DNA of 64,000 nucleotides, from sequence record OZ035795.1. One strand, given 5' to 3'. Under the pieces are notes generated by a model. The model was not told where the DNA came from. It searched no databases and saw nothing but the letters and a program-made list of their open reading frames with translations. Made by a program: the position numbers and the translations under genes. Shown one piece after another: positions 33,612 through 58,071 of this stretch; position 1 is the first letter of the stretch, and the number at the start of each line of letters is the position of its first letter. This DNA is from Krischvirus LF73P4.

Positions 33612-33618
33612 AATAAAA

Positions 33619-33927: not shown

Positions 33928-33950
33928 AGTATTATCCTCAATAGTTGGAT

Positions 33951-33973
33951 GAAAAGGGGGGCTTAATGCCCCG
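33951..33973 (-). terminator. rho-independent terminator or attenuator
   Basis: GGGGC-ttaat-GCCCC with A-run on plus. Confidence 0.5.
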
Positions 33974-33977
33974 TATA

Positions 33978-34265: not shown

Positions 34266-34346
34266 AATTTGATTCTCCTAGTTAGAAAGTGTATCTCGTT
34301 TCGATGGGTGTATTATGCTATACACCCGACCTCATGTCAACACTTT
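34266..34346 (-). promoter_or_regulatory. PeSL-type early promoter/stem-loop cassette
   Basis: TTGACA-17-CATAAT; hairpin GGGTGTAT/ATACACCC. Confidence 0.6.
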
Positions 34347-34625: not shown

Positions 34626-34629
34626 AATA

Positions 34630-34950: not shown

Positions 34951-34951
34951 T

Positions 34952-35161
34952 TTATAATCCTCGGTCGCGGCTATAGTACACGGTACGCCATACAATTTCA
35001 TGTTTCGTGTCGCTCCAGCACACGATCTCATTTACTCTTAAATCTTTGTTATCAACAAAAGATGAACATTGTGACGCTTCTTTCATCATTTTATCTGCTG
35101 TTTTCTCATCAAATACAGCACAGATTTCTTTATACACTCGATAATCTTTAAACTTGCTCAT
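34952..35161 (-). CDS. small protein, MSKFKDY tandem family (copy B)
   Basis: Start at MSKFKDYRVY; paralog of the adjacent gene. Confidence 0.45.
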   Translation of the reverse strand: MSKFKDYRVYKEICAVFDEKTADKMMKEASQCSSFVDNKDLRVNEIVCWSDTKHEIVWRTVYYSRDRGL

Positions 35162-35163
35162 AA

Positions 35164-35373
35164 TTAACACCAATCAAGAGTTTTTGAGAAAACCTCTATC
35201 CATTGTTGAGTATATGCGGTTTCTTTCCATGAGACAATACCGGTAGAATAATGGTTTTTGTTTCCAGAAAAGGACGGGCATTTTGATGCATCTTCCATCA
35301 TCTTTTCCGCGAACTCTGGTTCGTATACTCGCAAGATCTGTTGATATGCTTTGTAGTCTTTAAATTTGCTCAT
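35164..35373 (-). CDS. small protein, MSKFKDY tandem family (copy A)
   Basis: MSKFKDYKAY..EKMMEDASKC parallels the next gene. Confidence 0.5.
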   Translation of the reverse strand: MSKFKDYKAYQQILRVYEPEFAEKMMEDASKCPSFSGNKNHYSTGIVSWKETAYTQQWIEVFSKTLDWC

Positions 35374-35638
35374 AATCGTTAACTACCTTATCAGCTTCTT
35401 TTATTGTTTTTACATCAACTGCGATAACCCGTAAAGGTTCGTCGTGGTTCCACCAATGATCGTGAATATCAGCTTGTGATTTATCACCAAAGGAATCACG
35501 AATATCATTTTTACATTTATAGCTAATGTGACCGTCATAGTCAACATAAAGGTAATTATCGAAAATCGGCGTTTTTAAGATCATGCCGAAAAATCTTTCT
35601 TTGTGTGTCTTATCCAGTGTTGCAGTAATTCGCATCAT
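35360..35638 (-). CDS. HxHW-family small protein (paralog 4)
   Basis: HDHWW..RVIAVDV. Confidence 0.5.
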   Translation of the reverse strand: MMRITATLDKTHKERFFGMILKTPIFDNYLYVDYDGHISYKCKNDIRDSFGDKSQADIHDHWWNHDEPLRVIAVDVKTIKEADKVVNDYEQI

Positions 35639-35650
35639 AATATATTCCTC

Positions 35651-35830
35651 TTAGAAAGGGATGGTCATTTCTTGAGCTTGTACATTCTCGTTAGGATTAA
35701 ACTTCATCCAACCGATATTGTCTACCAGCATATGCACATTTTTATCATATCCTACGTGAGTAGTCAATACTAAATGTGCTTTACCTTCAACGATGATTTC
35801 CATGTACTTCTGAACTTCGATAGCTTTCAT
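35651..35830 (-). CDS. small hypothetical protein
   Basis: 59 aa, manually translated; conserved leader GGAGAATCAAA-ATG. Confidence 0.4.
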   Translation of the reverse strand: MKAIEVQKYMEIIVEGKAHLVLTTHVGYDKNVHMLVDNIGWMKFNPNENVQAQEMTIPF

Positions 35831-35895
35831 TTTTGATTCTCCGTTTGTTGTCTTGATGGGAGTATATTACTACTCCCTTTAATCATTGTCAACTA
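35831..35895 (-). promoter_or_regulatory. PeSL-type early promoter/stem-loop cassette
   Basis: TTGACA-17-TAATAT; hairpin GGGAGTA/TACTCCC. Confidence 0.55.
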
Positions 35896-36063
35896 TTATT
35901 TGTTAATTTCCGGTGCGTTGCTCGGATAGTAACCTTCTTTAACACCCAGATATTTTGCGACCATTCCGGTGATCTTCTGTGCTACTACAATGTCAAATTT
36001 CAGGTAGTCTTCACCGTGGTTTGCTACAATGTATGCTTCGCATTCTGCTTTAGTCTGGAACAT
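35896..36063 (-). CDS. small hypothetical protein (paralog of 32626..32793)
   Basis: Track ORF (84 aa) trimmed to the ATG after the conserved leader; the extension ran through the promoter cassette. Confidence 0.5.
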   Translation of the reverse strand: MFQTKAECEAYIVANHGEDYLKFDIVVAQKITGMVAKYLGVKEGYYPSNAPEINK

Positions 36064-36133
36064 TTTTGATTCTCCTATATCTCGTTGGTATGTGTGTAGT
36101 ATAGGGGATCGGTGATCCCCTGTCAACAACTTT
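36064..36133 (-). promoter_or_regulatory. PeSL-type early promoter/stem-loop cassette
   Basis: TTGACA, spacer palindrome GGGGATCACCGATCCCC, TATACT. Confidence 0.6.
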
Positions 36134-36442
36134 TTATTCTTCATCTTCATCTTTATCTTGATATGCGTACTTCATAAATTTGTCTGCTACTTTGTCCGCG
36201 TTTTCAGGTTCTACGTCTGACGCTAGGACAACAGCTAGTTCGGTTTTGTCGTTTCCATCATACCAATGATTATGAGTGTCGTTTTCTTCGATATAAAACG
36301 AATCGTTTGGAGTTGTGCGACAATATACGTCTAAATTCCCATCGATATAAAAGATCCAATCCGAATACAAAATGATTGTTTTAGCAAGATTTTTATTGTC
36401 TCTTACAAAAGGTTCCGCGACAAATAGCTTAGTTTGTTCCAT
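36134..36442 (-). CDS. HxHW-family small protein (paralog 5)
   Basis: THNHW..LAVVLASDV; start at MEQTKLF after GAGGAAA. Confidence 0.5.
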   Translation of the reverse strand: MEQTKLFVAEPFVRDNKNLAKTIILYSDWIFYIDGNLDVYCRTTPNDSFYIEENDTHNHWYDGNDKTELAVVLASDVEPENADKVADKFMKYAYQDKDEDEE

Positions 36443-36458
36443 AATATTTTCCTCAAAA

Positions 36459-36650
36459 TTATACAGCTTCGTAAACTTCCCAATGTTCAGCACCAACACG
36501 CTTAACGAAAAGGTTTTCTTTGATGTTATTCATAAACGTCTGGATGGATTTAATGCGGTTGGAAGGTTTCCAGTCTTCGTTGGCATTGCGGCGATACATA
36601 ATAATATTACCAGTTCGCTTATATTCAGCAACCATTTTAAGACCACACAT
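36459..36650 (-). CDS. hypothetical protein
   Basis: 63 aa; variant promoter cassette upstream. Confidence 0.45.
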   Translation of the reverse strand: MCGLKMVAEYKRTGNIIMYRRNANEDWKPSNRIKSIQTFMNNIKENLFVKRVGAEHWEVYEAV

Positions 36651-36730
36651 AATATTATCCTCAATTTGTGGGAGAGTATTACCCTCCCGATTATTGTTAT
36701 ACTACATTACGCAAAATGGCGTGTCAATGC
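36651..36730 (-). promoter_or_regulatory. variant promoter cassette with downstream stem-loop
   Basis: TTGACA-17-TAGTAT followed by hairpin GGGAGGGTAATACTCTCCC in the leader; -35 lies in the upstream gene's 3' end. Confidence 0.45.
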
Positions 36731-37027
36731 TTCTTTTGCTGTTCCGCTAAGATTCTCGATCTCTCCTGGCATAACATCAACCGCCAGAACTTCTACAACA
36801 TCCTCTGATCCTAACCAGTGAGTATGACCTTTGTAGAACTTGATAATCAGACTACCTTCCTCATCCCATTTAACGCTATCGCTAGCCCACCACACATCAC
36901 CGTCGATAAAGTTGATGTAAAGCACACTACGCCACATTGAATTAATTACTTTCAATACTGCGCCTTTCATATCTTCCACGGTGTGGTCTTCCATTTTGAA
37001 GACCTCGCCTACCTGAACTTTTGCCAT
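36707..37027 (-). CDS. HxHW-family small protein (paralog 6)
   Basis: GHTHW..VEVLAVDV. Confidence 0.5.
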   Translation of the reverse strand: MAKVQVGEVFKMEDHTVEDMKGAVLKVINSMWRSVLYINFIDGDVWWASDSVKWDEEGSLIIKFYKGHTHWLGSEDVVEVLAVDVMPGEIENLSGTAKEALTRHFA

Positions 37028-37044
37028 TTAGTCACCTCTCTTTA

Positions 37045-37224
37045 TTACATAACAATTACGCCAGCCGTTGAAAGTTGATGTTTCAACTGAGCATTTTCTG
37101 CTACTGTCAAATCAATGATTTCTTGTGACGCTGCAATCATATAGCCATTGGTGATATTGTTTTGCATCAGTTCAATGGTTTCTTCGTTGTAGCGGATTTT
37201 AGCGATGATTTCGTTGAAGTTCAT
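37045..37224 (-). CDS. small hypothetical protein
   Basis: 59 aa, manually translated; PeSL and conserved leader upstream. Confidence 0.4.
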   Translation of the reverse strand: MNFNEIIAKIRYNEETIELMQNNITNGYMIAASQEIIDLTVAENAQLKHQLSTAGVIVM

Positions 37225-37296
37225 AATTGATTCTCCTAGTTCGTTTCGGTATGTGTGTATTATAGGGGAGTTTAACCTCCCCTGTCAACAACTTTT
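37225..37296 (-). promoter_or_regulatory. PeSL-type early promoter/stem-loop cassette
   Basis: TTGACA, spacer palindrome GGGGAGGTTAAACTCCCC, TATAAT. Confidence 0.6.
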
Positions 37297-37608
37297 TTAA
37301 AGTTTTTCCATGATAACGGTCATAATTACATCTTCTGCGCGAGCGGTCAGATTATCAGCGTCAGCATGTGGGCGGTTGGTTGTTACAGAGATAACACCGT
37401 TGCGCACTGGTTTGATATTGATATCAAGATGATCCGCGAAACGTTCGCCAGTTACAGAATGAATTTTGGTGTTAAATTCTTTTGCCAGTGCCTTGCGAAC
37501 TTCACGAATCAGGGTAGCGTTTTTCAGTTGGTTCTCCGCGCTCATGGTCTTCTGAGTGTTCATGGTTCCGTCGAAGTCAATCATTGGCAGCGTTACGATG
37601 TATTTCAT
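37297..37608 (-). CDS. hypothetical protein
   Basis: 103 aa; PeSL upstream. Confidence 0.5.
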   Translation of the reverse strand: MKYIVTLPMIDFDGTMNTQKTMSAENQLKNATLIREVRKALAKEFNTKIHSVTGERFADHLDINIKPVRNGVISVTTNRPHADADNLTARAEDVIMTVIMEKL

Positions 37609-37688
37609 TTTTGATTCTCCTTAAGAAAGTGTGTTTCGTTTTGATGTGTGTAGTATAGGGGATCACCGATCCCCTGTCAACAACTTTT
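37609..37688 (-). promoter_or_regulatory. PeSL-type early promoter/stem-loop cassette
   Basis: TTGACA, spacer palindrome GGGGATCGGTGATCCCC, TATACT. Confidence 0.6.
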
Positions 37689-38018
37689 TTATGATTTTAG
37701 TGAATTAACCACTACATCAAAATGATGTACAGAGCACACCTTATTAAACACATATTCATCGTGTTTAGGAATAGCCCCTAATCGCTCGATTTCGCTCGCT
37801 GACACGATAAACCGTTTATCAGGTGCATTTACCTTATATGCTTCAACAACGCACGGAAAACGCGTTTTAGAGAGTTCGGGATAGTTTTCTGACTCCATCA
37901 GGACAATGAATACCCTATTACATTGATTGTAGAATCCGGTTTTTGATTTCATCAAGTTTTCTTCTCTGTGAAATTCGTGCAATCTTCCTTTCATGATTTC
38001 GTTGGTTCTTGTCTTCAC
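37689..38018 (-). CDS. hypothetical protein (start uncertain)
   Basis: Track ORF overlaps the upstream gene by about 100 nt; true start is probably an internal ATG. Confidence 0.35.
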   Translation of the reverse strand: MKTRTNEIMKGRLHEFHREENLMKSKTGFYNQCNRVFIVLMESENYPELSKTRFPCVVEAYKVNAPDKRFIVSASEIERLGAIPKHDEYVFNKVCSVHHFDVVVNSLKS

Positions 38019-38259
38019 AGTTTACCCACTCAACAAGGTCTTTGCCTAACTCGAAAGCCCATTCTCGGTCCTGCTTTACGTTTTGTAGGTATGGACTTTC
38101 CGACACTCGACGAAGTGATCTTGTCGTAACAAGAATGATCCCAGGAATGTTCGGATGTTCCTTTCCATATACAATAGGACGCGAGTCACTATCAATACCC
38201 TGTAAGAAGGTGTATCCTGAATCACTTAGGATCATATACATTTTCATTTCATCCATCAC
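37918..38259 (-). CDS. hypothetical protein
   Basis: 113 aa. Confidence 0.45.
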   Translation of the reverse strand: MMDEMKMYMILSDSGYTFLQGIDSDSRPIVYGKEHPNIPGIILVTTRSLRRVSESPYLQNVKQDREWAFELGKDLVEWVNCEDKNQRNHERKIARISQRRKLDEIKNRILQSM

Positions 38260-38516
38260 AGTTTCCTCAACCAGTTATTAAAGCGAGTAAACCATGATGC
38301 TTTTCGTGCTTCTTCTTCGGCTTTGCACGCACGCAAACCACTGAAACACCATTCATAATCATCACTGAAACATGATTCAACAGGAACACCCGCATTTCGT
38401 AGTTCTCTGGTCTTTATCATGAATCCTTGACATAAGGGGCGACCTTCAACAATGATAGGAAGTTTAACTTTTTCCATGAAAGTATACCCAGCACGGTCAA
38501 TAATTTCAATTTTCAT
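38256..38516 (-). CDS. hypothetical protein (paralog of 39762..39983)
   Basis: N-terminal pattern II..AG..FM..K.P.I.E shared with the second copy. Confidence 0.45.
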   Translation of the reverse strand: MKIEIIDRAGYTFMEKVKLPIIVEGRPLCQGFMIKTRELRNAGVPVESCFSDDYEWCFSGLRACKAEEEARKASWFTRFNNWLRKL

Positions 38517-38760
38517 TTACATTATCTCCATAGATCTTTCCATCAATATCAATTTCACCAGCGCGAACATCTAGGATAAGATGTGGTAGGTGTATGCAGT
38601 TTTCCCACCCTACGCGCTTCATTTCTTCTACGGTAACGTAAGCCCACCCGTTCGCTGTAATAAAGTCTACTTCAACCTTGAGAGGAAAGCAAGACTTTTC
38701 TATGTCTTCGAATCCGACAATATGTTTTGTTGTTGAATATGGAATATATCCGGTGATCAT
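38506..38760 (-). CDS. hypothetical protein
   Basis: 84 aa; overlapping operon. Confidence 0.45.
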   Translation of the reverse strand: MITGYIPYSTTKHIVGFEDIEKSCFPLKVEVDFITANGWAYVTVEEMKRVGWENCIHLPHLILDVRAGEIDIDGKIYGDNVNEN

Positions 38761-39218
38761 TTTGTGATCTCCTTATACTCAACACACCATAAGCGGGTAG
38801 CCCATGATAAACGCTCATAACGCTGGCAGAAATCGGACCATAGATATTGTGTACCGTCTTGCATGGTTGAAATATGCGTTTTCTCTCCAACTTTCACGAA
38901 AGAAGTATTCGATTTTGTGATCTCGACCGGAGTATATCCGAAAGCGGGTTCCAACTCAACATCTGAACTAAATGCCAATTTAACAGAATTTGTTTTTCTG
39001 ACCGCTGTCCGGTTTCCTTCTGGGTACAGCACAGCAGGTTTAGCGCCTAAGCGGATAAACTCAGTATTTTTAATGAACAGAATATCATGATAACCGTCAT
39101 ATTCCGACACTTCCATAGTAACAGGAAAATCGACATGTGCTAAACCTGGTAGATCTCGCATATCATGAAATGTAGCCATAATCTTTTTCATTCTATATTC
39201 CTCACTCTTCTGTTTCAT
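38757..39218 (-). CDS. hypothetical protein
   Basis: 153 aa. Confidence 0.45.
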   Translation of the reverse strand: MKQKSEEYRMKKIMATFHDMRDLPGLAHVDFPVTMEVSEYDGYHDILFIKNTEFIRLGAKPAVLYPEGNRTAVRKTNSVKLAFSSDVELEPAFGYTPVEITKSNTSFVKVGEKTHISTMQDGTQYLWSDFCQRYERLSWATRLWCVEYKEITK

Positions 39219-39438
39219 TTCTTTTATATGGTACTATAACAGGATTAATACAGCAAGCACCAATTACGTTATGAGCACCACAATTTAAGCATTTATAATC
39301 ATGGAACTTATTAAGGAATCGCCCGAACTCATAACCGACTAACGCCGCGTGTACTTGAGTCTCGATCTCATCCATATCAGCCAATGTTTTAACCTTCATA
39401 ATATAATCCTCAAATACTGGTTTTGCGAAGATGGTCAT
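39202..39438 (-). CDS. Cys-rich small protein
   Basis: CLNCGAH..GACC. Confidence 0.4.
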   Translation of the reverse strand: MTIFAKPVFEDYIMKVKTLADMDEIETQVHAALVGYEFGRFLNKFHDYKCLNCGAHNVIGACCINPVIVPYKRNETEE

Positions 39439-39700
39439 TACATGCTTTTAATGCATCAGTCGAGGTGTCATAGCGAGTATTATCATAGCACCAATAACCA
39501 TCTGTCAACTGATAAATTAATCCATCCTTTTTAGCGTCGATGAAAGACAATTCTTTGAAAGTTTCTACTTTCTTTGCTGATACTCCACGGTCACGGCGTT
39601 TATAGAGTTTAGCTAAAATGCGTTCAGCTTGTTCCTCTTTATCGCCAGACAGATCCCAGATGATGTTTCTGATATGCTTGATTAATTGTTCAGTGGTCAT
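39410..39700 (-). CDS. hypothetical protein
   Basis: 96 aa; PeSL upstream. Confidence 0.45.
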   Translation of the reverse strand: MTTEQLIKHIRNIIWDLSGDKEEQAERILAKLYKRRDRGVSAKKVETFKELSFIDAKKDGLIYQLTDGYWCYDNTRYDTSTDALKACNDHLRKTSI

Positions 39701-39761
39701 ATTTGATTCTCCTTAGTTGGTATGGTTATCATTATACGGGGATTTCTCCCCGTGTCAACAA
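39701..39761 (-). promoter_or_regulatory. PeSL-type early promoter/stem-loop cassette
   Basis: TTGACA, spacer palindrome GGGGAGAAATCCCC, TATAAT. Confidence 0.55.
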
Positions 39762-39983
39762 TTAAATGATCTCTGCTTCACCGTTAAGGAAGAAAGACCA
39801 TGTTTTGTTAGGATAACGAAGCGCCCACGATTCAGCAGTTTTAACACCAGCTTCGAACAATTGACGGCTGGTTACTTTAGCCATACCATCTTCGATGGCA
39901 ACGTTTTCAATAATCATCGGGTACTTAGCGCCACGCATGAAACCGAAGCCAGCGGAAGATTTGATAATTTTAACAGTTGCCAT
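39762..39983 (-). CDS. hypothetical protein (paralog of 38256..38516)
   Basis: Trimmed to MATVKII after the conserved leader. Confidence 0.45.
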   Translation of the reverse strand: MATVKIIKSSAGFGFMRGAKYPMIIENVAIEDGMAKVTSRQLFEAGVKTAESWALRYPNKTWSFFLNGEAEII

Positions 39984-40070
39984 TTTTGATTCTCCTAGAA
40001 AGTGTCGTGTTTCGATGGGTGTATTATGCAATAACACCGGATCGCTGTCAACACTTTCTAAGAAAAATTT
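39984..40070 (-). promoter_or_regulatory. PeSL-type early promoter cassette
   Basis: TTGACA-17-CATAAT; conserved leader. Confidence 0.55.
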
Positions 40071-40355
40071 TTAAACTAATCGAATATAGCCCAGAATTTC
40101 AGCACCTTTAGCCAGTCCTAAAACTTCCCATTCAAGGTCGCCGTAGTCATAATTTGCAACCATCAACTGACCATTTTTCATGCAGCAATCATGAGAGAAA
40201 ATTTGCCCCGCATAAACTACGATAGTAATAAACTTTCCTGATTCTGGCGGTGTGGAAGACAAAGCGACCATATGACCATTCAGCTTAGTAACCAGTGATG
40301 GAACAATAAAATTCGGGCTTACCTTAATACCGTTAAATTCGTTTGTGTCTTTCAT
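40071..40355 (-). CDS. hypothetical protein
   Basis: 94 aa. Confidence 0.45.
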   Translation of the reverse strand: MKDTNEFNGIKVSPNFIVPSLVTKLNGHMVALSSTPPESGKFITIVVYAGQIFSHDCCMKNGQLMVANYDYGDLEWEVLGLAKGAEILGYIRLV

Positions 40356-40702
40356 GCCAGACCTCGCAAAACACTAATAGCATAATCATGCTGGTTATTC
40401 ATAATATCAATTGCATTGTGATAACGAGCTAAACCATCAAGGATAAATTCTTGTTTATCCTGTTTCAGTTTGGTATCACGCGCAGCCATAAGAGCATCAA
40501 GAACAGGTCCAAAGTGATTATCTAATTCATCTTCGGTTGCAATGTTTCCTATTGCCTCGTCGATCCGTGATTCTAATGCTTGCTTTTCGTTGATCACTTG
40601 CTGGGTATATTCCAACACATCAAGAATATCGCGGGTAACGTCGCCATGATAAGGTATTCCCGCATGAAGATGATCAATTAATCGCTGAATATCAATGTTC
40701 AT
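40352..40702 (-). CDS. hypothetical protein
   Basis: 116 aa. Confidence 0.45.
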   Translation of the reverse strand: MNIDIQRLIDHLHAGIPYHGDVTRDILDVLEYTQQVINEKQALESRIDEAIGNIATEDELDNHFGPVLDALMAARDTKLKQDKQEFILDGLARYHNAIDIMNNQHDYAISVLRGLA

Positions 40703-41037
40703 TTGTAACCCTCCTCTGAAAGCACATCCCAGATCGTTGAGTCAAGGTGCATTAAATTCCACATAATAGAGTCATAACTACCGAAGCCAGAAGTAAAAAT
40801 TACATCACACTGGCGATAGGTCTTATGAAAATCGGTGGCTGTCTCTGCATCAATCGGCATATCGTCACCTGAAAGCACCAGACATTTAAGAATCATAACT
40901 CTGTTAGCCGTTGGCGCTTGCTTAGTCTTTTCAGCATATTTTTCGATGATCCGTTTTGCCTTTTCTTCTTTGATACGTCCAGACCAAATCCGGTTTCGGT
41001 ATTGATTCATAATAATTTCAATCACATCATTTTGCAT
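40699..41037 (-). CDS. hypothetical protein
   Basis: 112 aa. Confidence 0.45.
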   Translation of the reverse strand: MQNDVIEIIMNQYRNRIWSGRIKEEKAKRIIEKYAEKTKQAPTANRVMILKCLVLSGDDMPIDAETATDFHKTYRQCDVIFTSGFGSYDSIMWNLMHLDSTIWDVLSEEGYK

Positions 41038-41236
41038 TCTTCACGGTCTCCATAATTGTTTTGTAAGCCAGCTTAAGATGATCACCGAAAAACTTTGCAG
41101 TGTTACCCTTCGGATCGCGAAGCATGGTTTCTACGATCTCATCGGCAGTAACAATTTCTCCTTTCTTTGCTGCATGTTCTACCATATACTTCAAAGTTTC
41201 TTCGGAGGCAAGTGCTGCGGCTACTGGATTAATCAT
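41027..41236 (-). CDS. hypothetical protein
   Basis: 69 aa; PeSL upstream. Confidence 0.45.
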   Translation of the reverse strand: MINPVAAALASEETLKYMVEHAAKKGEIVTADEIVETMLRDPKGNTAKFFGDHLKLAYKTIMETVKNAK

Positions 41237-41300
41237 TTTGGTTCTCCTTTGTTGTCGATGTGTGCATTATGCTATACCCTATTCCGGTTGTCAACACCTA
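41237..41300 (-). promoter_or_regulatory. PeSL-type early promoter cassette
   Basis: TTGACA-17-CATAAT; leader GGAGAACCAAA-ATG. Confidence 0.55.
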
Positions 41301-41304
41301 AAAA

Positions 41305-41336
41305 CGAAAAAGCCACCCTTTCGGATGGCTTTTTGA
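41305..41336 (-). terminator. bidirectional-looking terminator
   Basis: AGCCACCC-tttc-GGATGGCT flanked by A-run and T-run. Confidence 0.6.
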
Positions 41337-41564
41337 TTATATTTTATTCACGTCCATTTGTATAGTAGTGTTTGAATCGACCTTTGCTAAACTAGTTAAA
41401 CATAGTAACCAATTCACCATCCCTTTCCAATGATAACCCTTCCTCGTCTTAGACGGGTCTTCCGATTCGGCAGTAATTGAACACGCGAAAGTATGAGGAA
41501 GCCAAATGGTTGTGTTAATGCTAGTTTTCTTTTACTTCTGATATGTATCCCACGGTGACTAACA

Positions 41565-41963
41565 TTAAGCCAGTCGAGTGAGTTTATAAATTGTTTTAAA
41601 GCATAGAGCTTTGATATCGTCTAAAACGCTCTGTAACGAGCTATCAACATCATTATAAATCTCACTAGCCATTTGCGTTAACTCTTGCAAATAGGCAATT
41701 TCGCTAATCTCCTTGCGGACGACCAACTTTGGCTGATAACGACCAGTGATCCCAATATTGGTTTCAGTGAAATTATCAACCAATTCTTGCATTTCAAGAT
41801 AGAACTCTTCTAGAGCCTTATGTTTTGCATAAGATCCAGGACCAGTTACCCCAAAATGCGCAGAATGCATATAAGTAACACTCATCAGACATTCACCGAT
41901 AAAGCGGTCAACTTTATTAGCCTTTCCCTCTTCGGACGTCTTTAGAAAATCACTGAATTTCAT
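41565..41963 (-). CDS. Dps-like ferritin-fold protein
   Basis: Start at MKFSDF after GGAGAA; HSAHF..KHKALEEF..VDNFTE gives H-x11-H-x14-D-x3-E, the spacing of the Dps ferroxidase ligands. Confidence 0.55.
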   Translation of the reverse strand: MKFSDFLKTSEEGKANKVDRFIGECLMSVTYMHSAHFGVTGPGSYAKHKALEEFYLEMQELVDNFTETNIGITGRYQPKLVVRKEISEIAYLQELTQMASEIYNDVDSSLQSVLDDIKALCFKTIYKLTRLA

Positions 41964-42252
41964 GTTCTCGATTCTCCATATTATGCAACAGAACAAATTG
42001 TTGTGCGGCATATCCCCCCATAATAAAACACTGCCTAGAATCCATACATTTACTACGAGCATACATCTTCATAATATGGGCATGAAATTTCTGGCTGGTT
42101 TCAATGGAAGGAGATATTTTGTTTACATATACTATCATTGCGCCGTCGAAATAATCAGTAAAGTCACCAGTTGGATCATATTGATCAGCACTGACACTTC
42201 CGACCGCAGTCAAGCATATTGCCGCTGTTAGAGTTTTACGAATAAATGACAT
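41950..42252 (-). CDS. small secreted protein
   Basis: Signal-peptide-like N-terminus MSFIRKTLTAAICLTAVGSVSA. Confidence 0.45.
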   Translation of the reverse strand: MSFIRKTLTAAICLTAVGSVSADQYDPTGDFTDYFDGAMIVYVNKISPSIETSQKFHAHIMKMYARSKCMDSRQCFIMGGYAAQQFVLLHNMENREHEIQ

Positions 42253-42320
42253 AAGTCATTCCCCCAGATTGAAAATATTCAGTTATATTTATAATCTGGG
42301 GCTTTATTTATGATTAACTC

Positions 42321-42917
42321 TTATTTGGTAGTACCGTCAATAAAATGTTTACGGCACACAGAAACATATTTATCCTCTGCACCAACTTCGATTTGAGCAC
42401 CATCGCGAATAACATTACCCTCTTTATCTACACGAAGGACCATTGTTGCTTTCTTGCCACAATGACAAATACCCTTCATTTCGACCAGTTTATCAGCAAA
42501 TGCCATTAATGCCGCAGATCCTTCAAATAGATTGCCCTGAAAGTCAGTGCGAAGGCCATAGCACAGTACAGGGATATTAGCATCATCAACAAGCGCACAC
42601 AAGCCTAAAACATGCTCTTTAGTCATAAATTGGGCTTCATCTACAAATACTGCATCTGGACGCCATCGATCCGGTCTACGCTTACCTAACGATTCACGAT
42701 AAACCAAATCGAAAAGATCATCCGATTTAGTGAAGGTGATCGCTGGGGCACTTAGGCCAATTCGGGAAACGACTTCACTTTCTGAATCTCGATTATCAAT
42801 CGCTGGCTTAAGAATTAATACTCGCATATCACGTTCGGTATAGTTATAAGCACTTTGTAACAGAGAAGTTGATTTGCCAGCGTTCATAGATGCATAGTAG
42901 AAATATAATTGCGCCAT
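42321..42917 (-). CDS. tk: thymidine kinase
   Basis: P-loop MNAGKST; FVDEAQF; CHCGKKA; collinear with recalled T4 Tk. Confidence 0.93.
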   Translation of the reverse strand: MAQLYFYYASMNAGKSTSLLQSAYNYTERDMRVLILKPAIDNRDSESEVVSRIGLSAPAITFTKSDDLFDLVYRESLGKRRPDRWRPDAVFVDEAQFMTKEHVLGLCALVDDANIPVLCYGLRTDFQGNLFEGSAALMAFADKLVEMKGICHCGKKATMVLRVDKEGNVIRDGAQIEVGAEDKYVSVCRKHFIDGTTK

Positions 42918-43210
42918 TAATTAATCTCCAAAAATCCAACAAGGCCTAAACCGATATAAGTCCAGATACCAATGAAAAAGATGTTAATGCTCATGGCAAG
43001 GATAAACCCTTTCAGAGTTTTGGGATACCCGACCCAATATTCCCGACCATCTTCTAACCGGATCAACTTATTGCCTTGCGAGTCCATATCAACTACAACA
43101 TGTTTATTTCGAGATTGCAATAGATATTGTTTTACAATCTCTACACCCGCCATAATAACAATAACGAAAATAAAAGTCCACACAACAAGATTAATGATAG
43201 TCTCAAGCAT
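42917..43210 (-). CDS. small membrane protein
   Basis: Two hydrophobic segments. Confidence 0.45.
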   Translation of the reverse strand: MLETIINLVVWTFIFVIVIMAGVEIVKQYLLQSRNKHVVVDMDSQGNKLIRLEDGREYWVGYPKTLKGFILAMSINIFFIGIWTYIGLGLVGFLEIN

Positions 43211-43457
43211 TTTCTATCACCTCCACCCAATCAGGTGTTTCCTGAAAGACTCCTTCACCTTCATGATGGTCGCAACCTTTATTGCTACAGTACATCCACC
43301 AATCCCACATTCCCCACGGTAAACGCTGCATATCGTCGTTACAGCAAGTGAAGATGATAGGCCAACCACATCTACCACATCGGCAGTTTTCCTTCATGTG
43401 TGCGCTATTAGGCTTCATATTCAACCACCACAATATTGATATCCGGCGTAAAATCAT
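43203..43457 (-). CDS. Cys/Trp-rich zinc-finger-like protein
   Basis: CRCGRCGW..CC..C..C..H pattern. Confidence 0.4.
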   Translation of the reverse strand: MILRRISILWWLNMKPNSAHMKENCRCGRCGWPIIFTCCNDDMQRLPWGMWDWWMYCSNKGCDHHEGEGVFQETPDWVEVIENA

Positions 43458-43863
43458 TAATAATTTCTTCTACGCATTCCCACTCAAGACCGCCAATCCC
43501 ACAACCAATTTTAGGAATATAGAACGGCTTAACAGTACCTTCAAATGCGGAGTTAAGTTGTTCGAATCCACGGATGATAGCGGAATATTCAGCATTTGGT
43601 CCTGGACGGAATTGCGTATAAAGATTAATACCCATCCAGTTATAACCATTAACGGTATGATGCCAAACATTAAACTCGCCTAGCTTACTCGCCGTTCCTC
43701 TCGGTGTCTTTTTGTCAGTAGCCAATGCTTGCGGGAACTCTTTCGCGATCTTCGCAGCAATACCAGCACCCATAGTATGAAAACAATTACAACCATGAAT
43801 TAAATGACCGTTTCCTTGTTTAAACAGGGCGATGAGATCGCCCTTTACAGTATCAATAATCAT
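43408..43863 (-). CDS. macro-domain protein (ADP-ribose binding/hydrolase)
   Basis: GCNCFHTMGAGIAAKI and IGCGIGGL resemble macro-domain glycine-rich loops. Confidence 0.6.
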   Translation of the reverse strand: MIIDTVKGDLIALFKQGNGHLIHGCNCFHTMGAGIAAKIAKEFPQALATDKKTPRGTASKLGEFNVWHHTVNGYNWMGINLYTQFRPGPNAEYSAIIRGFEQLNSAFEGTVKPFYIPKIGCGIGGLEWECVEEIINDFTPDINIVVVEYEA

Positions 43864-43878
43864 AATATAAACCTCTCA

Positions 43879-44238
43879 TTAGTCACGGGAAGACAACCCA
43901 GCCATAAAACGGCTTAACAGTGTGTCGCGATAAGCAAAGCATAATTGCTTATCAGGGGCAGTATCACAAAGGTTGCGTTTTGTTTTAGCAAAGCTGGCAA
44001 TACTCAGATCCCACGCTCGATTTTTTCGTTTTTCATCTCGACCTTGTTTGTATGCTTCATCAAGTTCGAGCGCGATAAAATCACTACACATGTTATCATC
44101 ATCACAGAAAGTTTTAATGATCTTTTTGTTGATCTCAAATCCTTTGTATTCGAACTTTGGATAAGGGCGCTCATTACTAGCAAGCGCACCAGCCGAGAAC
44201 ATCATAGCAATCATAGCAATTATTGTCAACTTTTTCAT
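43879..44238 (-). CDS. secreted Cys-containing protein
   Basis: Signal-peptide-like N-terminus. Confidence 0.45.
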   Translation of the reverse strand: MKKLTIIAMIAMMFSAGALASNERPYPKFEYKGFEINKKIIKTFCDDDNMCSDFIALELDEAYKQGRDEKRKNRAWDLSIASFAKTKRNLCDTAPDKQLCFAYRDTLLSRFMAGLSSRD

Positions 44239-44245
44239 ATATTCC

Positions 44246-44836
44246 TCAATAGCGTTTAGTCTTAAGAATGCCTTTACTCTTTAGATGGTTAGCCTTTTTT
44301 AGTACATCATCAGCATAACCTAACCCGGCTTTATAGTTCCATCCAGCATTGTAAGAAGCTAGCGCGAGTCGGATATTACCGTTTCGAACATCCAGCCAGT
44401 ATGCTAACTCATCCATCGCGTAGAATGCAGAAACCTCGCGATTCATGATAAAGTTGATAGTCTGGCGATCACTCATTTTAACACCGCGCTTTGCATTTTT
44501 CGCTTTCACCGTTTTAAGGTAATTTTGAAATAATCCATAAGCATGATGATTTTTCTTTGGTGCTAAGTTTGCACCCGCGCTTGATTCTTGCCATGCGATA
44601 CCCGCCAGGATGTGACCTAAACCCTTTCCGTTATAGCGAATATTCGGATGGTCCTTTTTCAACTTACCGCTTTTCTCGAATTGCTCGCCGTATTGATAGG
44701 CGAAATGTAAATTATCTAGTTGGTGTGCTGTAAAGTTGTCTATCGGCGCTTTTTTGATCGGTGCGCTAGTCGATGCGTGTGTAGCACCAACGGCTAGTGA
44801 CAGACTCAATACTATCGCTTTTAGAACTTTTAACAT
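44246..44836 (-). CDS. secreted lytic transglycosylase (SLT domain)
   Basis: Signal peptide; GIAWQESS catalytic-Glu motif; YNAG. Confidence 0.65.
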   Translation of the reverse strand: MLKVLKAIVLSLSLAVGATHASTSAPIKKAPIDNFTAHQLDNLHFAYQYGEQFEKSGKLKKDHPNIRYNGKGLGHILAGIAWQESSAGANLAPKKNHHAYGLFQNYLKTVKAKNAKRGVKMSDRQTINFIMNREVSAFYAMDELAYWLDVRNGNIRLALASYNAGWNYKAGLGYADDVLKKANHLKSKGILKTKRY

Positions 44837-44869
44837 TAATTTCTCCTGTTTGGCTTAACTTTCTGATTC

Positions 44870-44905
44870 CATAATATAGCCCTATCACCAGAAAGTCAAG
44901 CATTA
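44870..44905 (-). promoter_or_regulatory. possible sigma70-like promoter
   Basis: Minus strand TTGACT..TATATT upstream of the transglycosylase gene. Confidence 0.3.
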
Positions 44906-44922
44906 TTTTTAACCAATTTCCA

Positions 44923-45345
44923 TTATTGGTCTACCTTCAAAACAACCGCCGACATTTTACCCGCCAGTCGTTTTGGATTCTCTATAATCATTCGGCAGCA
45001 TAGACCGTGATATGGCTTACCCTCTTCGATTAGATCTACTGTCATCCCGATCCACATGTTACCGTCAGTAATTTCTAATCGATTCGGACGGTCTTCCATT
45101 TTCAGGAAGTCGAAGATCTCCGGCAAACGAGTTTCTATCTTATTGAATAGTTCCATTGTCTTATGTTCATCGATATGACGATCGGTTAGACGGTCGATCA
45201 TATGCGGACTAAAGCGAATGAAAATATACTCACCATAACCATCATTCAAGCACTTTTCTTTGATCTGTGCATTGGTTTTGCGCATTTCGGTTTCGAAGAA
45301 TCTACGCAGCTTACTACGGCGAACATGTACGTTAATTGTTTCCAT
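44923..45345 (-). CDS. regB: RegB site-specific endoribonuclease
   Basis: RSKLRRFFE, RLEITDGNMWIG and CRMIIEN match recalled T4 RegB; start at METINVH after AAGGA. Confidence 0.85.
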   Translation of the reverse strand: METINVHVRRSKLRRFFETEMRKTNAQIKEKCLNDGYGEYIFIRFSPHMIDRLTDRHIDEHKTMELFNKIETRLPEIFDFLKMEDRPNRLEITDGNMWIGMTVDLIEEGKPYHGLCCRMIIENPKRLAGKMSAVVLKVDQ

Positions 45346-45349
45346 TTTA

Positions 45350-45685
45350 TTATCCTTTCTTAAACAAATTGCGAAGCCAGTATACAAACGGGATTTCTTT
45401 AAACTTGAACTTGTCAATAGTTAATTCTTTAGTAGCAAGATGAATACCATAAGCATCATGTGTAACTATATGCCATTTTCTATAGTCCAAATGTGAACAA
45501 CCGTCTGGATCTAGGTTAATAAGAGTTTCTCGCTCACTAGAATTATTTTTCCACAATTTTGTAATAGGATCGCACATAATTCGACCTAGCGTACCATGAA
45601 TAATCTCACAACGGTAAAGTTTTCCAGCAGTGAGATAGGCGCACCCGTCATAGTCGGTATAAACAAACACTTCTTTAACACTCAT
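45350..45685 (-). CDS. small protein, tandem family (copy 3, internally repeated)
   Basis: Start at MSVKEV after GGAGTA; shares motifs with the next two genes. Confidence 0.45.
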   Translation of the reverse strand: MSVKEVFVYTDYDGCAYLTAGKLYRCEIIHGTLGRIMCDPITKLWKNNSSERETLINLDPDGCSHLDYRKWHIVTHDAYGIHLATKELTIDKFKFKEIPFVYWLRNLFKKG

Positions 45686-45745
45686 TTTAATACTCCTTTG
45701 TTGTTTCGATGGGGGTATATTACTACCCCCGATCATGGGTGTCAA
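45686..45745 (-). promoter_or_regulatory. PeSL-type early promoter/stem-loop cassette
   Basis: TTGACA-17-TAATAT; hairpin GGGGGTAGTAATATACCCCC. Confidence 0.55.
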
Positions 45746-45991
45746 CTACTTTTTCAAGATTTTTTTGAGTGCATTCCAAAGACCTTTATTCCCAGGTTGT
45801 TTTGGTTCTTCGATCAGTGTCCATGTTCGACCGTCTAAGTGTGCACAATTTTTAAGACAAATAAAAATCTGGTGTCCCTTATCATCACGGATATAACCAC
45901 TATTCGCAAATCTTTCATGTGGTGTATATTCATACAGTGTATTAGGTGTAATATACTTGCGGTTACTATAAGGTGTCATCACATACATCAT
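45746..45991 (-). CDS. small protein, tandem family (copy 2)
   Basis: ATGA overlap with upstream stop; GYIRDDKGH..HLDGRTWTL parallels copy 1. Confidence 0.45.
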   Translation of the reverse strand: MMYVMTPYSNRKYITPNTLYEYTPHERFANSGYIRDDKGHQIFICLKNCAHLDGRTWTLIEEPKQPGNKGLWNALKKILKK

Positions 45992-46182
45992 GGTACTAAC
46001 TCCCAACGATCACCGCGAAGATGAGAACATCTACCATCAAGAAGTATTGTAATACGATAACCTATATCATCTTTGATGTAACCGATTGTCGGTGGATTTT
46101 CGTCGTCTCGTGCCGGGGTAAAATCATACATCTTTCCGGGCGTAATATCTTGTCCTTTATTGCTATTGGTATAAACTTGCAT
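45988..46182 (-). CDS. small protein, tandem family (copy 1)
   Basis: AGGAGA RBS; GYIKDDIGY..HLRGDRWEL. Confidence 0.5.
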   Translation of the reverse strand: MQVYTNSNKGQDITPGKMYDFTPARDDENPPTIGYIKDDIGYRITILLDGRCSHLRGDRWELVP

Positions 46183-46203
46183 TTTCTTAATCTCCTATAT
46201 TAA

Positions 46204-46902
46204 CTAACCACGGGTATAGTGTTCCAGAACAACTGTCAGATGAATATATTCTAATAGATCTTTCCAAAAGTCAACATCTGGTTCTTCCGGCATACCGTTT
46301 TTCTTTGCCTCTTCACGCGAGAGTTTAACACGCTCGTAGAGATCTTTCAATTCTTCCCGCACATTATCAAAGGTTCTTTCTCCTAACTTACACGCTAAAA
46401 TAGAAGAACGTCGCGCGAGCGGGAATTGTAGATCACCTGTCTGATAGATTTCAAGTAGCTGATAACCAACACGCAGAGCATGAGAAAGATCTTTCCAGTT
46501 ACTGAAATACTTTTCAGATTTGGCTACCTGCTTTTTGAGATAGCCAGACAAACCCCACATACCAACATGATAGAATTTATCTCGATGTGTTCGGATGTAT
46601 TCCCATTCTCTGGAGGATTCAATCAACATGTTACTAGGAGCGTGCACCATGTCAATAGCGCCGATATCGCCTTTACATGCCAGATTGATAAACCGTTTTA
46701 GACTGAACATATTAACATCAATATCGTCTTTGGTGTTCTTGATACCTTGACCGCTAGTGCTTTGGTCATAGTGTTCTTTCATAGATCCTAAGATAATTTC
46801 TTTCGCAGTCGGAACAAAGATACCACGATAATCTTTATCTGAATTTTCAGTATCAAGGCCGTACAAGTGAGATCCGAAGACCATTTTAACCATTGTATGC
46901 AT
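46204..46902 (-). CDS. nucleotidyltransferase-fold protein (Pol-beta superfamily)
   Basis: N-terminal GSHLYGLDTENSDKD fits the G[GS]-x(9-13)-DxD signature. Confidence 0.5.
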   Translation of the reverse strand: MHTMVKMVFGSHLYGLDTENSDKDYRGIFVPTAKEIILGSMKEHYDQSTSGQGIKNTKDDIDVNMFSLKRFINLACKGDIGAIDMVHAPSNMLIESSREWEYIRTHRDKFYHVGMWGLSGYLKKQVAKSEKYFSNWKDLSHALRVGYQLLEIYQTGDLQFPLARRSSILACKLGERTFDNVREELKDLYERVKLSREEAKKNGMPEEPDVDFWKDLLEYIHLTVVLEHYTRG

Positions 46903-46920
46903 AATTAAACCCTCAGTTGA

Positions 46921-47514
46921 TTAAACGTATTCAGCAACAACATTATGTTTAAAATTACCGCTCCTTTTTGGATTTGGATTTTTCAATCGACTATGTATTA
47001 AATTTTTGTTGTATCCGGTTGCTTTAGACGCTTCGCCAATACTTTGATAAACAACACCATTAACACGAATCGGACGAGACTTATTAAACAGTTTATTCAA
47101 TCCGGCATCATATGCATGGTTTTGGTTTTCTTGCCTCGTTGCGATCTCAAGATTCCAAACACAATTACAAGATTTTACCCCACTTTTATGATTAATTTCA
47201 AGACCTTCACAATCACCTATAAAGTGTTCAGCAACTAGTCTATGAATATAGCTATATTTCTTACTTTCCCCATCATGCAAGCATACATTATAATAACCAT
47301 CACCAGCGCGTTTAGGTCGGAGTAGTTTACCTTTAACACGTTTTATAGTAGGGAACTCACCAAATTGATTTCTCTGGATAAACGGAATCTCGCGGTCTAA
47401 TGAACGGATTCGACCATAGTTAGACACTTGATAAAAACTTTCATATCCTTTAATTGGCTTCCATATCTCAGGGATTTCTACACCATCAATAACAACAAGT
47501 TTAAATTCTTCCAT
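46921..47514 (-). mobile_element. free-standing HNH homing endonuclease
   Basis: NUMOD4-like GYESFYQVSNYGRIRS plus HNH region HRLVAEHF..EINHKSG..NLEIATRQENQNH. Confidence 0.75.
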
Positions 47515-47526
47515 ATTTCACCTCAT

Positions 47527-47557
47527 AAAAATAAAGCCAACCCTTTCGGATTGGCTT
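47527..47557 (-). terminator. rho-independent terminator
   Basis: AGCCAACC-ctttc-GGATTGGCT with A-run on plus. Confidence 0.55.
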
Positions 47558-47562
47558 GTCGA

Positions 47563-47976
47563 TTACATAGATTCCGTAAAGGTACGGGTGATAATATCAA
47601 GTTGTTGTTCGCGTGTCAAGGCGTTGAAGCGGGTAGCATAACCACTGATTCGAATTGTAAGCTGCGGGTACTTCTCAGGATGTTCAACCGCATCAAGAAG
47701 AGTCTCCCGACGCAGTACATTCGCGTTGAGATGATGACCCGCGTTACTATTTACCCCGTTATCAATTGCTAAAGGACGGAAGCTAGTTGTGTGCAGTGCC
47801 AGCGAATCGACGTCTTCTGCGGTGATCACATGGTCTTCTGCGAAAGTTTTACTAACAATTACTTTAGCGCCGATCAGTGCTTTCGGTTCGGATACCAGAA
47901 TCATAGGCGCGAAGTGTCCACCAATAATAGTACCTTTATGCTCACCTTTCATGATTTGAATTGCTTTAAATTCCAT
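47563..47976 (-). CDS. GrcA/YfiD-like autonomous glycyl-radical cofactor
   Basis: C-terminus ..[33 protein letters not shown] nearly identical to recalled E. coli GrcA; a T4 homolog (Y06I) is known. Confidence 0.8.
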
Positions 47977-48111
47977 AATTCACCTCTTATAGATCAGGAC
48001 GTTCGTCATTAATTTTACCAACCAAAACACCATAGAGTTTATCAGGTTGGACTTTACGATTCTTATTGATTGTAGAACGGAATCGACGAGCTACGCTATC
48101 TTTATTTTTCA

Positions 48112-56792: not shown

Positions 56793-56850
56793 CGAAACAA
56801 ATTTTCTATTATTCTAAAGATCTTTCTTCGTTTTGGTTATGTTTTAACCA
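56793..56850. repeat. intergenic repeat, copy C
   Basis: ccgaaacaaattttctattattctaaagatctttcttcgttttggttat; lies between the gene 35 terminator and gene 3. Confidence 0.6.
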
Positions 56851-56856
56851 ACTGTA

Positions 56857-56887
56857 TAAAAATAAAGCCGACCACGAGGATCGGCTT
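56857..56887 (-). terminator. rho-independent terminator after gene 35
   Basis: AGCCGA-loop-TCGGCT with A-run on plus. Confidence 0.5.
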
Positions 56888-56897
56888 GTTAAAAATG

Positions 56898-58037
56898 TTA
56901 ATCAACATCGAACTCTTTAAAGTTGTTGGATGTGATATGTTTATTGTCTCTAGGTAATTTAAGAAGACTCATAACAGGGTTATCGAAATTGCCGTTATCC
57001 TGAATGTGAGTTGTTCTAATACCGTTAACACCAAATGAAGTAGGACCAGTAGTTTTGACGACTCCACTGATCGGCGTTATTAGTATGTTTCTAATTTTAA
57101 CAATACCTTCATTTGAGTTGGTTGGATATCTGATACAACCAGTGGTAACACTATCAACTCCTTCCGGTACGGTATAGACGGCTTCAAACTTTTCCCATTG
57201 ATCTTTCTGGCTGGCATTATAACGAACGCCAGTTTGATATTGTCCATCAGTGAAGTAGTTGTGATAGAAACGCGCTGTTACGTTGGCTGCGGCTGCGGCA
57301 CTATCACGGAACAATTCAAAGGATATTGATAGTTTGTCACCTGCCTTTATGTTAAAATCTTCAAGTGGTGCGCTGATCTCATCATGAGGCCATTGTATTA
57401 GCTCGAAATGTTCGGCATCTTCGCTAACATATTCAACCGGATAATCTAAAAATCGTTGTGGTGTTCCTGTTATTGCAAGATCGTCTATAGTATCATAAAC
57501 TTTCTCGATCTGTATAGACGAATCTTGACCTTCCCCGTTCGTTGCTTGCATCCCTTCGCACACAATTTTGCCCATTTTAGTAGAATAAATTGCTGCATAG
57601 GATATACGAGGCATTTGCTGTAGCAAAATGTGATTCGGGAATGATACAGATCCCATCTTAGAGAATACAACATCACTTATCGGATCTGCAAACAATTCTC
57701 CATGCGTTGCCATCGCAATGATATAGTCACCTTTCAGCAAAGAGAGATAATCACGCATTGCCAAAACAGCACCGCGACCATAGAATACCTTTTCTTCGTG
57801 TAGTTGTCCAGTTGGAGTAAGAACTTTAAAATTTAGGCCATTTTCATAGCCAGTGCCAACTATCTCCACTCCATTAAATCTAATCCTTGCTGGTTTGGAA
57901 GAATCCGCATTAGATCCGCGCACTTCCAGCTTATACATCACAGAGTTGTTTTCTGAAATGCTTGTAAATGTCGCGGAGTCTTCGTCGAAATGCGCAAACT
58001 TAATTCCAGTATTGCGTAATTCTATCTCTTGTGTCAT
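56898..58037 (-). CDS. 35: long tail fibre hinge protein gp35
   Basis: 379 aa; C-terminal FGVNGIR as in T4 gp35; follows gene 34. Confidence 0.7.
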   Translation of the reverse strand: MTQEIELRNTGIKFAHFDEDSATFTSISENNSVMYKLEVRGSNADSSKPARIRFNGVEIVGTGYENGLNFKVLTPTGQLHEEKVFYGRGAVLAMRDYLSLLKGDYIIAMATHGELFADPISDVVFSKMGSVSFPNHILLQQMPRISYAAIYSTKMGKIVCEGMQATNGEGQDSSIQIEKVYDTIDDLAITGTPQRFLDYPVEYVSEDAEHFELIQWPHDEISAPLEDFNIKAGDKLSISFELFRDSAAAAANVTARFYHNYFTDGQYQTGVRYNASQKDQWEKFEAVYTVPEGVDSVTTGCIRYPTNSNEGIVKIRNILITPISGVVKTTGPTSFGVNGIRTTHIQDNGNFDNPVMSLLKLPRDNKHITSNNFKEFDVD

Positions 58038-58071
58038 AATAACCCCATAGGGGGGCTTTCGCCCCCTTTAA

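Follow-up and report, generated by a model that had tools for sequence, protein, structure and literature searches.

The viral repair of transfer RNA (tRNA) cut by a host suicide nuclease is known in textbook form from bacteriophage T4, in which the enzymes Pnk and Rnl1 heal and seal the break. It has not been clear by what means phages could withstand nucleases such as RloC, which excise a nucleotide as well. Proteins of the family PF10127 occur in essentially all T4-type phages and are an obvious candidate for the filling step; the family was reportedly named RlaP by Burroughs and Aravind on account of the RNA-ligase operons in which some of its members lie. Here we analyze one such protein, the compact NrdC.11 encoded on the minus strand of a 64,000-nucleotide stretch of Krischvirus LF73P4 (sequence record OZ035795.1; the whole stretch is referred to below as the window), and weigh the case that it may be an RNA 3'-end nucleotidyltransferase (NTase) taking part in tRNA repair.

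Two RlaPs from RtcB operons of Pseudomonas fluorescens and P. aeruginosa (PfRlaP and PaRlaP) have been characterized. They add one or two nucleoside monophosphates (NMPs) or deoxynucleoside monophosphates (dNMPs) to an RNA 3'-OH, are inactive on DNA or protein, and prefer Mn2+ (bioRxiv 10.64898/2025.12.29.696909). Given a cleaved-tRNA mimic, they favor its break-site 3' end over an acceptor-type end, and they raise the aminoacylation of repaired tRNA that was short of one anticodon-loop nucleotide (bioRxiv 10.64898/2025.12.29.696909). In the authors' proposal, the targets of RlaP counteraction are "smart" ribotoxins, RloC among them, which cut and then excise a nucleotide; they consider the activity of RlaP compatible with 5'-phosphate ligases (bioRxiv 10.64898/2025.12.29.696909). 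A comparison of jumbo phages showed RlaP and RNA ligases to be distributed in parallel (PMC7824862). As early as 2006, a match to COG3541 had marked nrdC.11 as a nucleotidyltransferase gene (PMC1524935).

The gene in the window is the RB49/JSE-type coliphage copy of T4 nrdC.11, an annotated and already known gene; what is new, if mildly so, is the insert-less architecture of the protein and the different genomic position of the gene in Krischvirus. Its features are as follows:

46204..46902, minus strand: coding sequence of 232 amino acids for an RlaP-family (PF10127) nucleotidyltransferase of Pol-beta fold, the compact T4 nrdC.11 orthologue without the insert (from the open reading frame (ORF), Pfam, and PHROG)
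46910..46914, minus strand: Shine–Dalgarno sequence GAGGG, 7 nt 5' of the nrdC.11 ATG (read from the sequence)
46831..46875, minus strand: codons G10–D24, with the hG[GS] motif (F9-G10-S11) and the metal-binding pair D22-x-D24 at the start of strand 23–30 (alignment; DSSP on the model)
46717..46725, minus strand: codons D60-I61-D62, where strand 61–67 begins; one or both acids may supply the third catalytic carboxylate (alignment; model)
46498..46521, minus strand: codons 128–135 (SEKYFSN), insertion point of the alpha/beta insert of about 105 amino acids found in T4-type NrdC.11 and absent here (alignment)
46471..46494, minus strand: codons K137–R144 (WKDLSHALR), a K-x3-H-x2-R motif in the first long helix of the C-terminal helical domain (alignment; model)

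The ORF is intact, beginning with ATG and running for 699 nt. Its surrounding region is 95–99% identical to that of 58 Krischvirus genomes (RB49/JSE-type T4-like coliphages), with FL20 the closest at 98.7%. The protein is 99% identical to those annotated as nrdC.11 or nucleotidyltransferase in Krischvirus phages JSE and RB49, the JSE orthologue EpJSE_00100 being labeled "nrdC.11, nucleotidyltransferase," and 49 records are at least 99% identical to it at the protein level. Many other GenBank records of orthologues (e.g., FL20, AV118, Nami, Killian) say "thioredoxin" or "glutaredoxin nrdC," and one says "HNH homing endonuclease"; the thioredoxin and glutaredoxin labels have apparently spread from the gene name nrdC.11 to a protein that has no thioredoxin fold.

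The family assignment is carried by profile searches. Pfam PF10127, RlaP ("RNA repair pathway DNA polymerase beta family"), matches residues 7–191 of the protein at profile positions 24–198 of 249 (E = 3.6e-14). The score, 53.5 bits, compares with a gathering threshold of 23 bits, and no other Pfam family is found at E <= 1. PHROG 388, "nucleotidyltransferase," matches with E = 4.1e-79, in two separate stretches. No NCBIfam model matches the protein; the PADLOC profiles yielded no CD-NTase (cGAS/DncV-like nucleotidyltransferase) or other defense NTase, only a spurious CARF match (E = 0.034), and sequence searches of the PDB with the single protein and with a 40-sequence profile returned chance matches only. 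The N-terminus, MHTMVKMVFGSHLYGLDTENSDKDYRGIF, contains G10-S11, ten further residues, and D22-K23-D24. The GS-x10-DxD signature from which a first-pass annotation had started is accordingly present as described, and a regular-expression search of the six-frame translation of the window found it at this site alone. The signature by itself would be weak evidence; the whole-protein profile matches go far beyond what would be expected by chance.

The residues needed for catalysis appear to be retained. Among 40 T4-type homologues, the invariant positions include G10, S11, D22, D24, N56, D60, D62, D84, W136, K137, H141, and R144. When three phage RlaPs of 21–28% identity (from Bacillus, Gordonia, and Mycobacterium phages) are added to the alignment, G10, S11, G15, D22, G27, D60, G78, F110, Y121, K137, H141, and R144 are still invariant; D24 and D62 are nearly so (position 62 being D or E), and D84 is not conserved. 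We therefore rejected D84 as a third catalytic residue, since in the model it also lies in a helix. The acids expected for two-metal catalysis are, on this alignment, all present as D22, D24, and D60 and/or D62. The first-pass annotation had named the lack of a second catalytic acid as grounds for abandoning the nucleotidyltransferase assignment, and no such lack is found. The K137/H141/R144 motif is a probable point of contact with nucleoside triphosphate (NTP) or RNA. Individual sequences deviate: one representative (P0140) has N in place of D24, and the T4 RefSeq NrdC.11 (NC_000866; L008:6436-7446) has N at D60, where all other homologues have D (KNTKDNID versus KNTKDDID), as well as an ambiguous residue X at position 101. 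The N in the T4 record may go back to an early sequencing error, or T4 may genuinely differ at a candidate catalytic residue.

The AlphaFold2 model of the window protein is confident (predicted local distance difference test (pLDDT) 92.2, predicted template modeling score (pTM) 0.88) and consists of an N-terminal alpha/beta NTase domain followed by an all-helical C-terminal domain (residues 98–230). DSSP places a strand at residues 2–9, a helix at 11–14 directly after the GS, a strand at 23–30 beginning with the DxD, and a strand at 61–67 beginning with D60/D62; the K137–R144 motif lies in the helix formed by residues 136–155. Together with the RlaP profile and the conserved carboxylates, this model bears out the Pol-beta-superfamily fold that had first been proposed from the motif. 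The Pseudomonas RlaPs, encoded in RtcB-RtcA operons, belong to the same Pfam family and have three conserved acidic residues, and the PfRlaP crystal structure, as described, follows the same plan of an NTase domain and a C-terminal helical domain. They differ from the window protein in falling within similarity cluster 1a, while the T4-type proteins fall within cluster 5; in addition, the window gene is phage-encoded and lies away from any ligase gene, and its likely partner would be the 5'-phosphate ligase Rnl1 and not RtcB.

Beyond the family, Foldseek searches of the PDB recover two-domain NTases as the best matches (HalB, 3c18, ANT, and KNTase). The top matches are ANT(4')/kanamycin nucleotidyltransferase (E = 2e-5, template modeling (TM) score 0.38) and Hailong HalB (E = 7e-5, TM up to 0.46); LinB, AAD(9), and Tam41 come next. 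These proteins are 7–15% identical to the window protein and go undetected by HMMER, and the matches reflect a kinship of two-domain minimal NTases at the level of the fold. Predicted viral structures include many phage "nucleotidyltransferases" that match the model with a query TM of about 0.8. The families that the first-pass annotation had put forward for comparison (MNT, cGAS/DncV, and CCA-adding enzymes) do not find support, the specific family being RlaP. Class II CCA-adding enzymes and poly(A) polymerases, like the CD-NTases, do share the Pol-beta core with hG[GS] and DxD; for the window protein, however, Pfam gives no match to CCA-adding enzymes or PolyA_pol, PADLOC gives none to CD-NTases, and neither group is among the listed top fold matches.

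The fold kinship does raise the possibility that the enzyme nucleotidylylates a small molecule or a protein, in the manner of ANT, KNTase, or Lnu, of the MNT antitoxins that AMPylate HEPN toxins, or of DrrA. The antibiotic NTases (ANT(4'), 1kny and 6un8; AAD(9); LinB) have the same architecture of NTase and helical domains, but ANT(4') stands at a TM of 0.38 and 11–13% identity, has no Pfam relationship to the window protein, and acts on small-molecule substrates. Across the proteins relevant to this reading, TM scores are low (0.38–0.46) and identities are 11–14%; by sequence the window protein is an RlaP, with no relationship to an ANT or MNT family; and Escherichia coli proteins were not labeled by the Pseudomonas RlaPs. 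A stand-alone MNT antitoxin was likewise rejected as an identity for the protein, which has 232 residues and two domains in the model; no HEPN toxin gene adjoins nrdC.11. Small-molecule or protein modification is thus improbable.

HalB, the best structural match in the PDB, suggests another function: synthesis of short DNA or RNA oligomers that serve as a signal or decoy against host abortive infection, for example by keeping a Hailong-type effector shut. HalB (PDB 9dbh) is an anti-phage NTase that synthesizes oligodeoxyadenylates, whereas the characterized RlaPs require an RNA primer and extend it by only one or two nucleotides. Its identity to the window protein is 13%, with no sequence-profile relationship: HMMER finds no match from a single sequence or from a family profile even at E <= 10. 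There is no NTase-type PADLOC match, no HalA-like partner gene lies near nrdC.11, and fold similarity among minimal NTases is generic. We regard such a synthase as very unlikely.

Members of the family are widespread. A tblastn search found NrdC.11 homologues in 1598 phage records, from T4-like phages of Escherichia, Klebsiella, Aeromonas, and Acinetobacter and also from Bacillus, Gordonia, and Mycobacterium phages, and an exhaustive HMMER search found 3538 relatives at E <= 1e-3 among 1.84 billion cluster representatives. The accessory location assigned to the gene in the first-pass annotation thus holds in part: the gene does lie in a plastic early-gene region, but with homologues in so many phage records it is less accessory than that label implied.

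Comparison with T4 shows what is distinctive about the Krischvirus protein. T4 NrdC.11 (NP_049709, 336 amino acids, PHROG 388) belongs to the same orthologous family (BLASTP E = 2e-53), and the alignment contains a single 106-residue gap. T4-type proteins are about 44–45% identical to the window protein over the aligned parts and have the GS, DxD, D(D)xD, and WKxxSHxxR motifs in common with it. The segment absent from the window protein holds the KYGxKGS and YGxR motifs that are nearly invariant in the long forms, and nearly all homologues have 300–345 amino acids versus 232 here. In a long form (P0017; AlphaFold2, pLDDT 86), the insert is modeled as a separate helix/five-strand/helix subdomain at approximately residues 131–240. 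Pfam assigns this insert to no family, the only match being a sub-threshold one to DUF1409. The Pfam RlaP profile runs continuously through the short forms and breaks off at the insert in the long ones; this marks the insertion as a feature of the T4 lineage, the length of the Krischvirus protein being approximately canonical for RlaP. KYGxKGS is retained in other short forms that occur sporadically (P0153, P0229), which suggests that short forms arose from long ones by deletion. Since the Krischvirus protein lacks the insertion, its substrate recognition may differ from that of T4 NrdC.11.

The same comparison allows for the protein to be a decaying remnant, an internally deleted NrdC.11 that lost its function with the insertion domain: about 105 residues of nearly all T4-type homologues are gone, including KYGxKGS and YGxR. 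Selection and conservation make this extremely unlikely. Seven Krischvirus orthologues all have 699 nt with the frame intact, and they differ by 0–2 amino-acid changes versus 2–16 synonymous ones; the ratio of nonsynonymous to synonymous substitution rates (dN/dS) is 0.00–0.13, typically 0.02–0.06. The window nrdC.11 is, judging from these orthologues, under strong purifying selection. All catalytic and C-domain motif residues are retained, the Pfam profile, which was built without the insert, aligns continuously, and the model is confident across the junction. The short form is also kept in a lineage of 56% identity, a metagenomic relative (contig L016) with the same synteny: M15 endolysin, vs.8-like, GrcA-like, NUMOD4/HNH, RlaP, and small ORFs. 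A single residue is private to the window protein, S195 in the C-terminal helical domain, where all six of the compared Krischvirus orthologues have A195.

Given the family, the catalytic motifs, the confident fold, the purifying selection, and the co-occurrence with pseT and rnlA described below, we infer, with a probability of about 0.55, that NrdC.11 is an RNA 3'-end nucleotidyltransferase that refills nuclease-damaged tRNA between Pnk healing and Rnl1 sealing, as a means of counter-defense. In this mechanism, an NTP would be bound with two divalent metals held by D22, D24, and D60/D62, and a broken RNA would receive one or two untemplated NMPs at its 3'-OH. The most plausible substrate would be a tRNA whose anticodon loop has been cut by a host anticodon nuclease, with the addition made to the 5' half. 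Pnk, the product of pseT, would first remove the 2',3'-cyclic phosphate and phosphorylate the 5'-OH; RlaP would next restore the nucleotide trimmed by nucleases such as RloC; and Rnl1, the product of rnlA, would finally seal the break. Rnl1 needs a 3'-OH and a 5'-phosphate, which matches the ends that Pnk and an RlaP-type addition would deliver. The first-pass annotation had supposed that a phage copy of such an enzyme could modify host or defense components; the characterized RlaPs, however, act on RNA 3' ends and not on proteins or signaling nucleotides, so the likely counter-defense role is instead the repair of host-inflicted RNA damage.

Both pseT and rnlA are present in JSE, and their locus is found in 58 of 58 Krischvirus records at >=95% identity, away from nrdC.11. 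Counted by genus, homologues of NrdC.11 and of Rnl1 occur in almost the same numbers, although this agreement carries little weight with both genes near-core in T4-type phages. We also inspected RlaP neighborhoods in seven phages outside the T4 group. In Bacillus phage KLEB27-3 (L002), RlaP lies beside Pnk, an RNA ligase, and phosphoesterases; in Gordonia phage Kudefre (L004), beside Pnk, an RNA ligase, and a tRNA gene cluster; in Cronobacter phage GAP32, beside Thg1; and in Proteus phage Mydo, 2 kb from the gene of a CCA-adding enzyme. Mycobacterium phage Winky, Gordonia phage ZiggyZoo, and Mycobacterium phage SilverDipper have no relevant gene near RlaP. The KLEB27-3 and Kudefre clusters also hold genes for a ribose-phosphate pyrophosphokinase-like protein and a nicotinate/nicotinamide phosphoribosyltransferase, a pair that presumably resembles the phage NAD+-reconstitution pathways directed against NAD-depleting defenses; if that resemblance holds, these two clusters would be counter-defense islands.

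The Mydo neighborhood could also be read in favor of a different use of the same chemistry, namely RNA 3'-end tailing apart from ligase repair, whether as patching of the tRNA 3'-CCA or as the addition of short tails that alter the stability of host or phage RNA. The Pseudomonas RlaPs labeled species the size of ribosomal RNA, full-length tRNA, and cleaved tRNA in total RNA with little NTP specificity, and the window gene lies among RNA-metabolism genes (regB, with dmd further along) and not beside pseT or rnlA. Characterized RlaPs nevertheless stop after one or two nucleotides and prefer the break-site end over the acceptor-type end, and the association of the family across bacteria and jumbo phages is with RNA ligases. 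On balance, tailing seems unlikely, and we prefer the refilling of damaged tRNA.

Several considerations weigh against a role in such repair. To our knowledge, no phage RlaP has been assayed, and the addition of one or two NMPs has been shown only for PfRlaP and PaRlaP. In neither the window nor T4-type phages generally is nrdC.11 adjacent to pseT or rnlA; its neighbors in the window are HNH, GrcA-like, small-ORF, and regB genes, with no RNA ligase or repair gene adjoining. All three genes are quasi-core in T4-type phages, so their co-occurrence is weak evidence, and three of the seven contexts outside the T4 group are without an RNA-repair neighbor. HalB, the best single structural match, makes DNA oligomers. 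The preprint on the Pseudomonas enzymes lists T4 NrdC.11 as an RlaP "of unknown function" in cluster 5, as against the tested cluster 1a, and an enzyme that works untemplated and discriminates little among NTPs would put back the right nucleotide in only a fraction of molecules (bioRxiv 10.64898/2025.12.29.696909). Finally, the nrdC.11–mobD.3 block of T4 is deletable, and T4 is viable without it in the laboratory (PMC9825161), a dispensability that fits a conditional, host-dependent role.

If tRNA refilling is nonetheless the function, NrdC.11 would be the missing third enzyme of the T4 Pnk/Rnl1 pathway, and T4-type phages could defeat RloC-type nucleases. In that case the Krischvirus form would demonstrate that the T4 insertion domain is not required and the catalytic core suffices, and the insert-less NrdC.11 offers a convenient minimal enzyme.

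The genes around nrdC.11 in the window are listed here:

47563-47976, minus strand: GrcA-like autonomous glycyl-radical cofactor, the vs.6 orthologue (Pfam Gly_radical, E = 1e-15)
47534..47619, minus strand: early-promoter-like site (TTGACA, 17-nt spacer, TGnTATTAT; 11/12 matches) followed by a 10-bp hairpin (consensus match)
46921..47514, minus strand: free-standing NUMOD4 + HNH_3 homing endonuclease, ending 18 nt 5' of nrdC.11 (Pfam NUMOD4, E = 1.7e-18; HNH_3, E = 3.2e-10)
45988-46182, 45746-45991, and 45350-45685, minus strand: three tandem small paralogous ORFs (64, 81–86, and 111 amino acids) directly 3' of nrdC.11 (alignment)

The promoter-like site upstream of the HNH gene and nrdC.11 is likely the transcription start of this gene run, to judge by its match to the consensus. 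The C-terminus of the vs.6 orthologue is close to the spare-part motif of pyruvate formate-lyase. The small paralogues are 42% and 31% identical to the first of them and have in common the motif Y-I-T-P...G-Y-I-x-D-D...C-[SA]-H-L-x-G-x-x-W; none of them falls in a Pfam family. The divergent contig L016 has two of the three behind its RlaP gene, in unchanged order. In the window, the three are probably co-transcribed with nrdC.11. Beyond them, downstream, lies regB. The window contains no tRNA genes.

The position of nrdC.11 differs between the lineages: in the window, JSE, FL20, and MIZ4 it lies between the small ORFs on the regB side and vs.6, whereas in T4 it lies between nrdC.10 and mobD. 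The endonuclease flank varies even within Krischvirus. The NUMOD4/HNH gene is patchy in the genus, being absent from KFS-EC and from many further genomes, whose records cover only 85% of a 4-kb query; JSE carries a different, 531-nt endonuclease gene at the same spot, and T4 has an unrelated HNH enzyme, MobD, beside nrdC.11. The upstream flank of nrdC.11 looks like a recurrent insertion site for homing endonucleases. Although the T4 and window genes both adjoin a free-standing HNH endonuclease, the two enzymes are not detectably homologous (E = 0.043), and joint transfer of nrdC.11 and its HNH neighbor from the T4 nrdC.11–mobD site is accordingly unsupported.

On a larger scale, no deposited Krischvirus genome is collinear with the window, in which junctions at 37605-37690 and 56743-56851 separate three blocks:

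20869-37690: matches JSE 110–127 kb (baseplate genes, alt, small ORFs)
37605-56851: matches FL20 53.6–73.5 kb (rI, tk, regB, and nrdC.11 through genes 1 and 3)
56743-64000: matches JSE 152.5 to 145.2 kb, inverted (gp35, gp34, rnh)

Segments at both junctions are matched in 58 of 58 related records, none of which spans either junction. Either the genome is genuinely rearranged or the assembly became chimeric at repeats; the block that contains nrdC.11 is internally collinear. The first junction falls inside a dispersed repeat (approximately 37630-37665, minus strand) that reads TTGACA-GGGGATCGGTGATCCCC-TATACT, an early promoter in which a hairpin separates the -35 box from the -10 box. This repeat is found at least 12 times in the interval from 30 to 55 kb; similar copies lie near 30430, 32526, 32807, 33490, 36061, 37209, 39981, 51602, 52342, 52579, and 54582. 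We take the repeat to resemble the "promoter-early stem-loop" (PeSL) cassettes that have been proposed to underlie modular shuffling in RB49-type phages.

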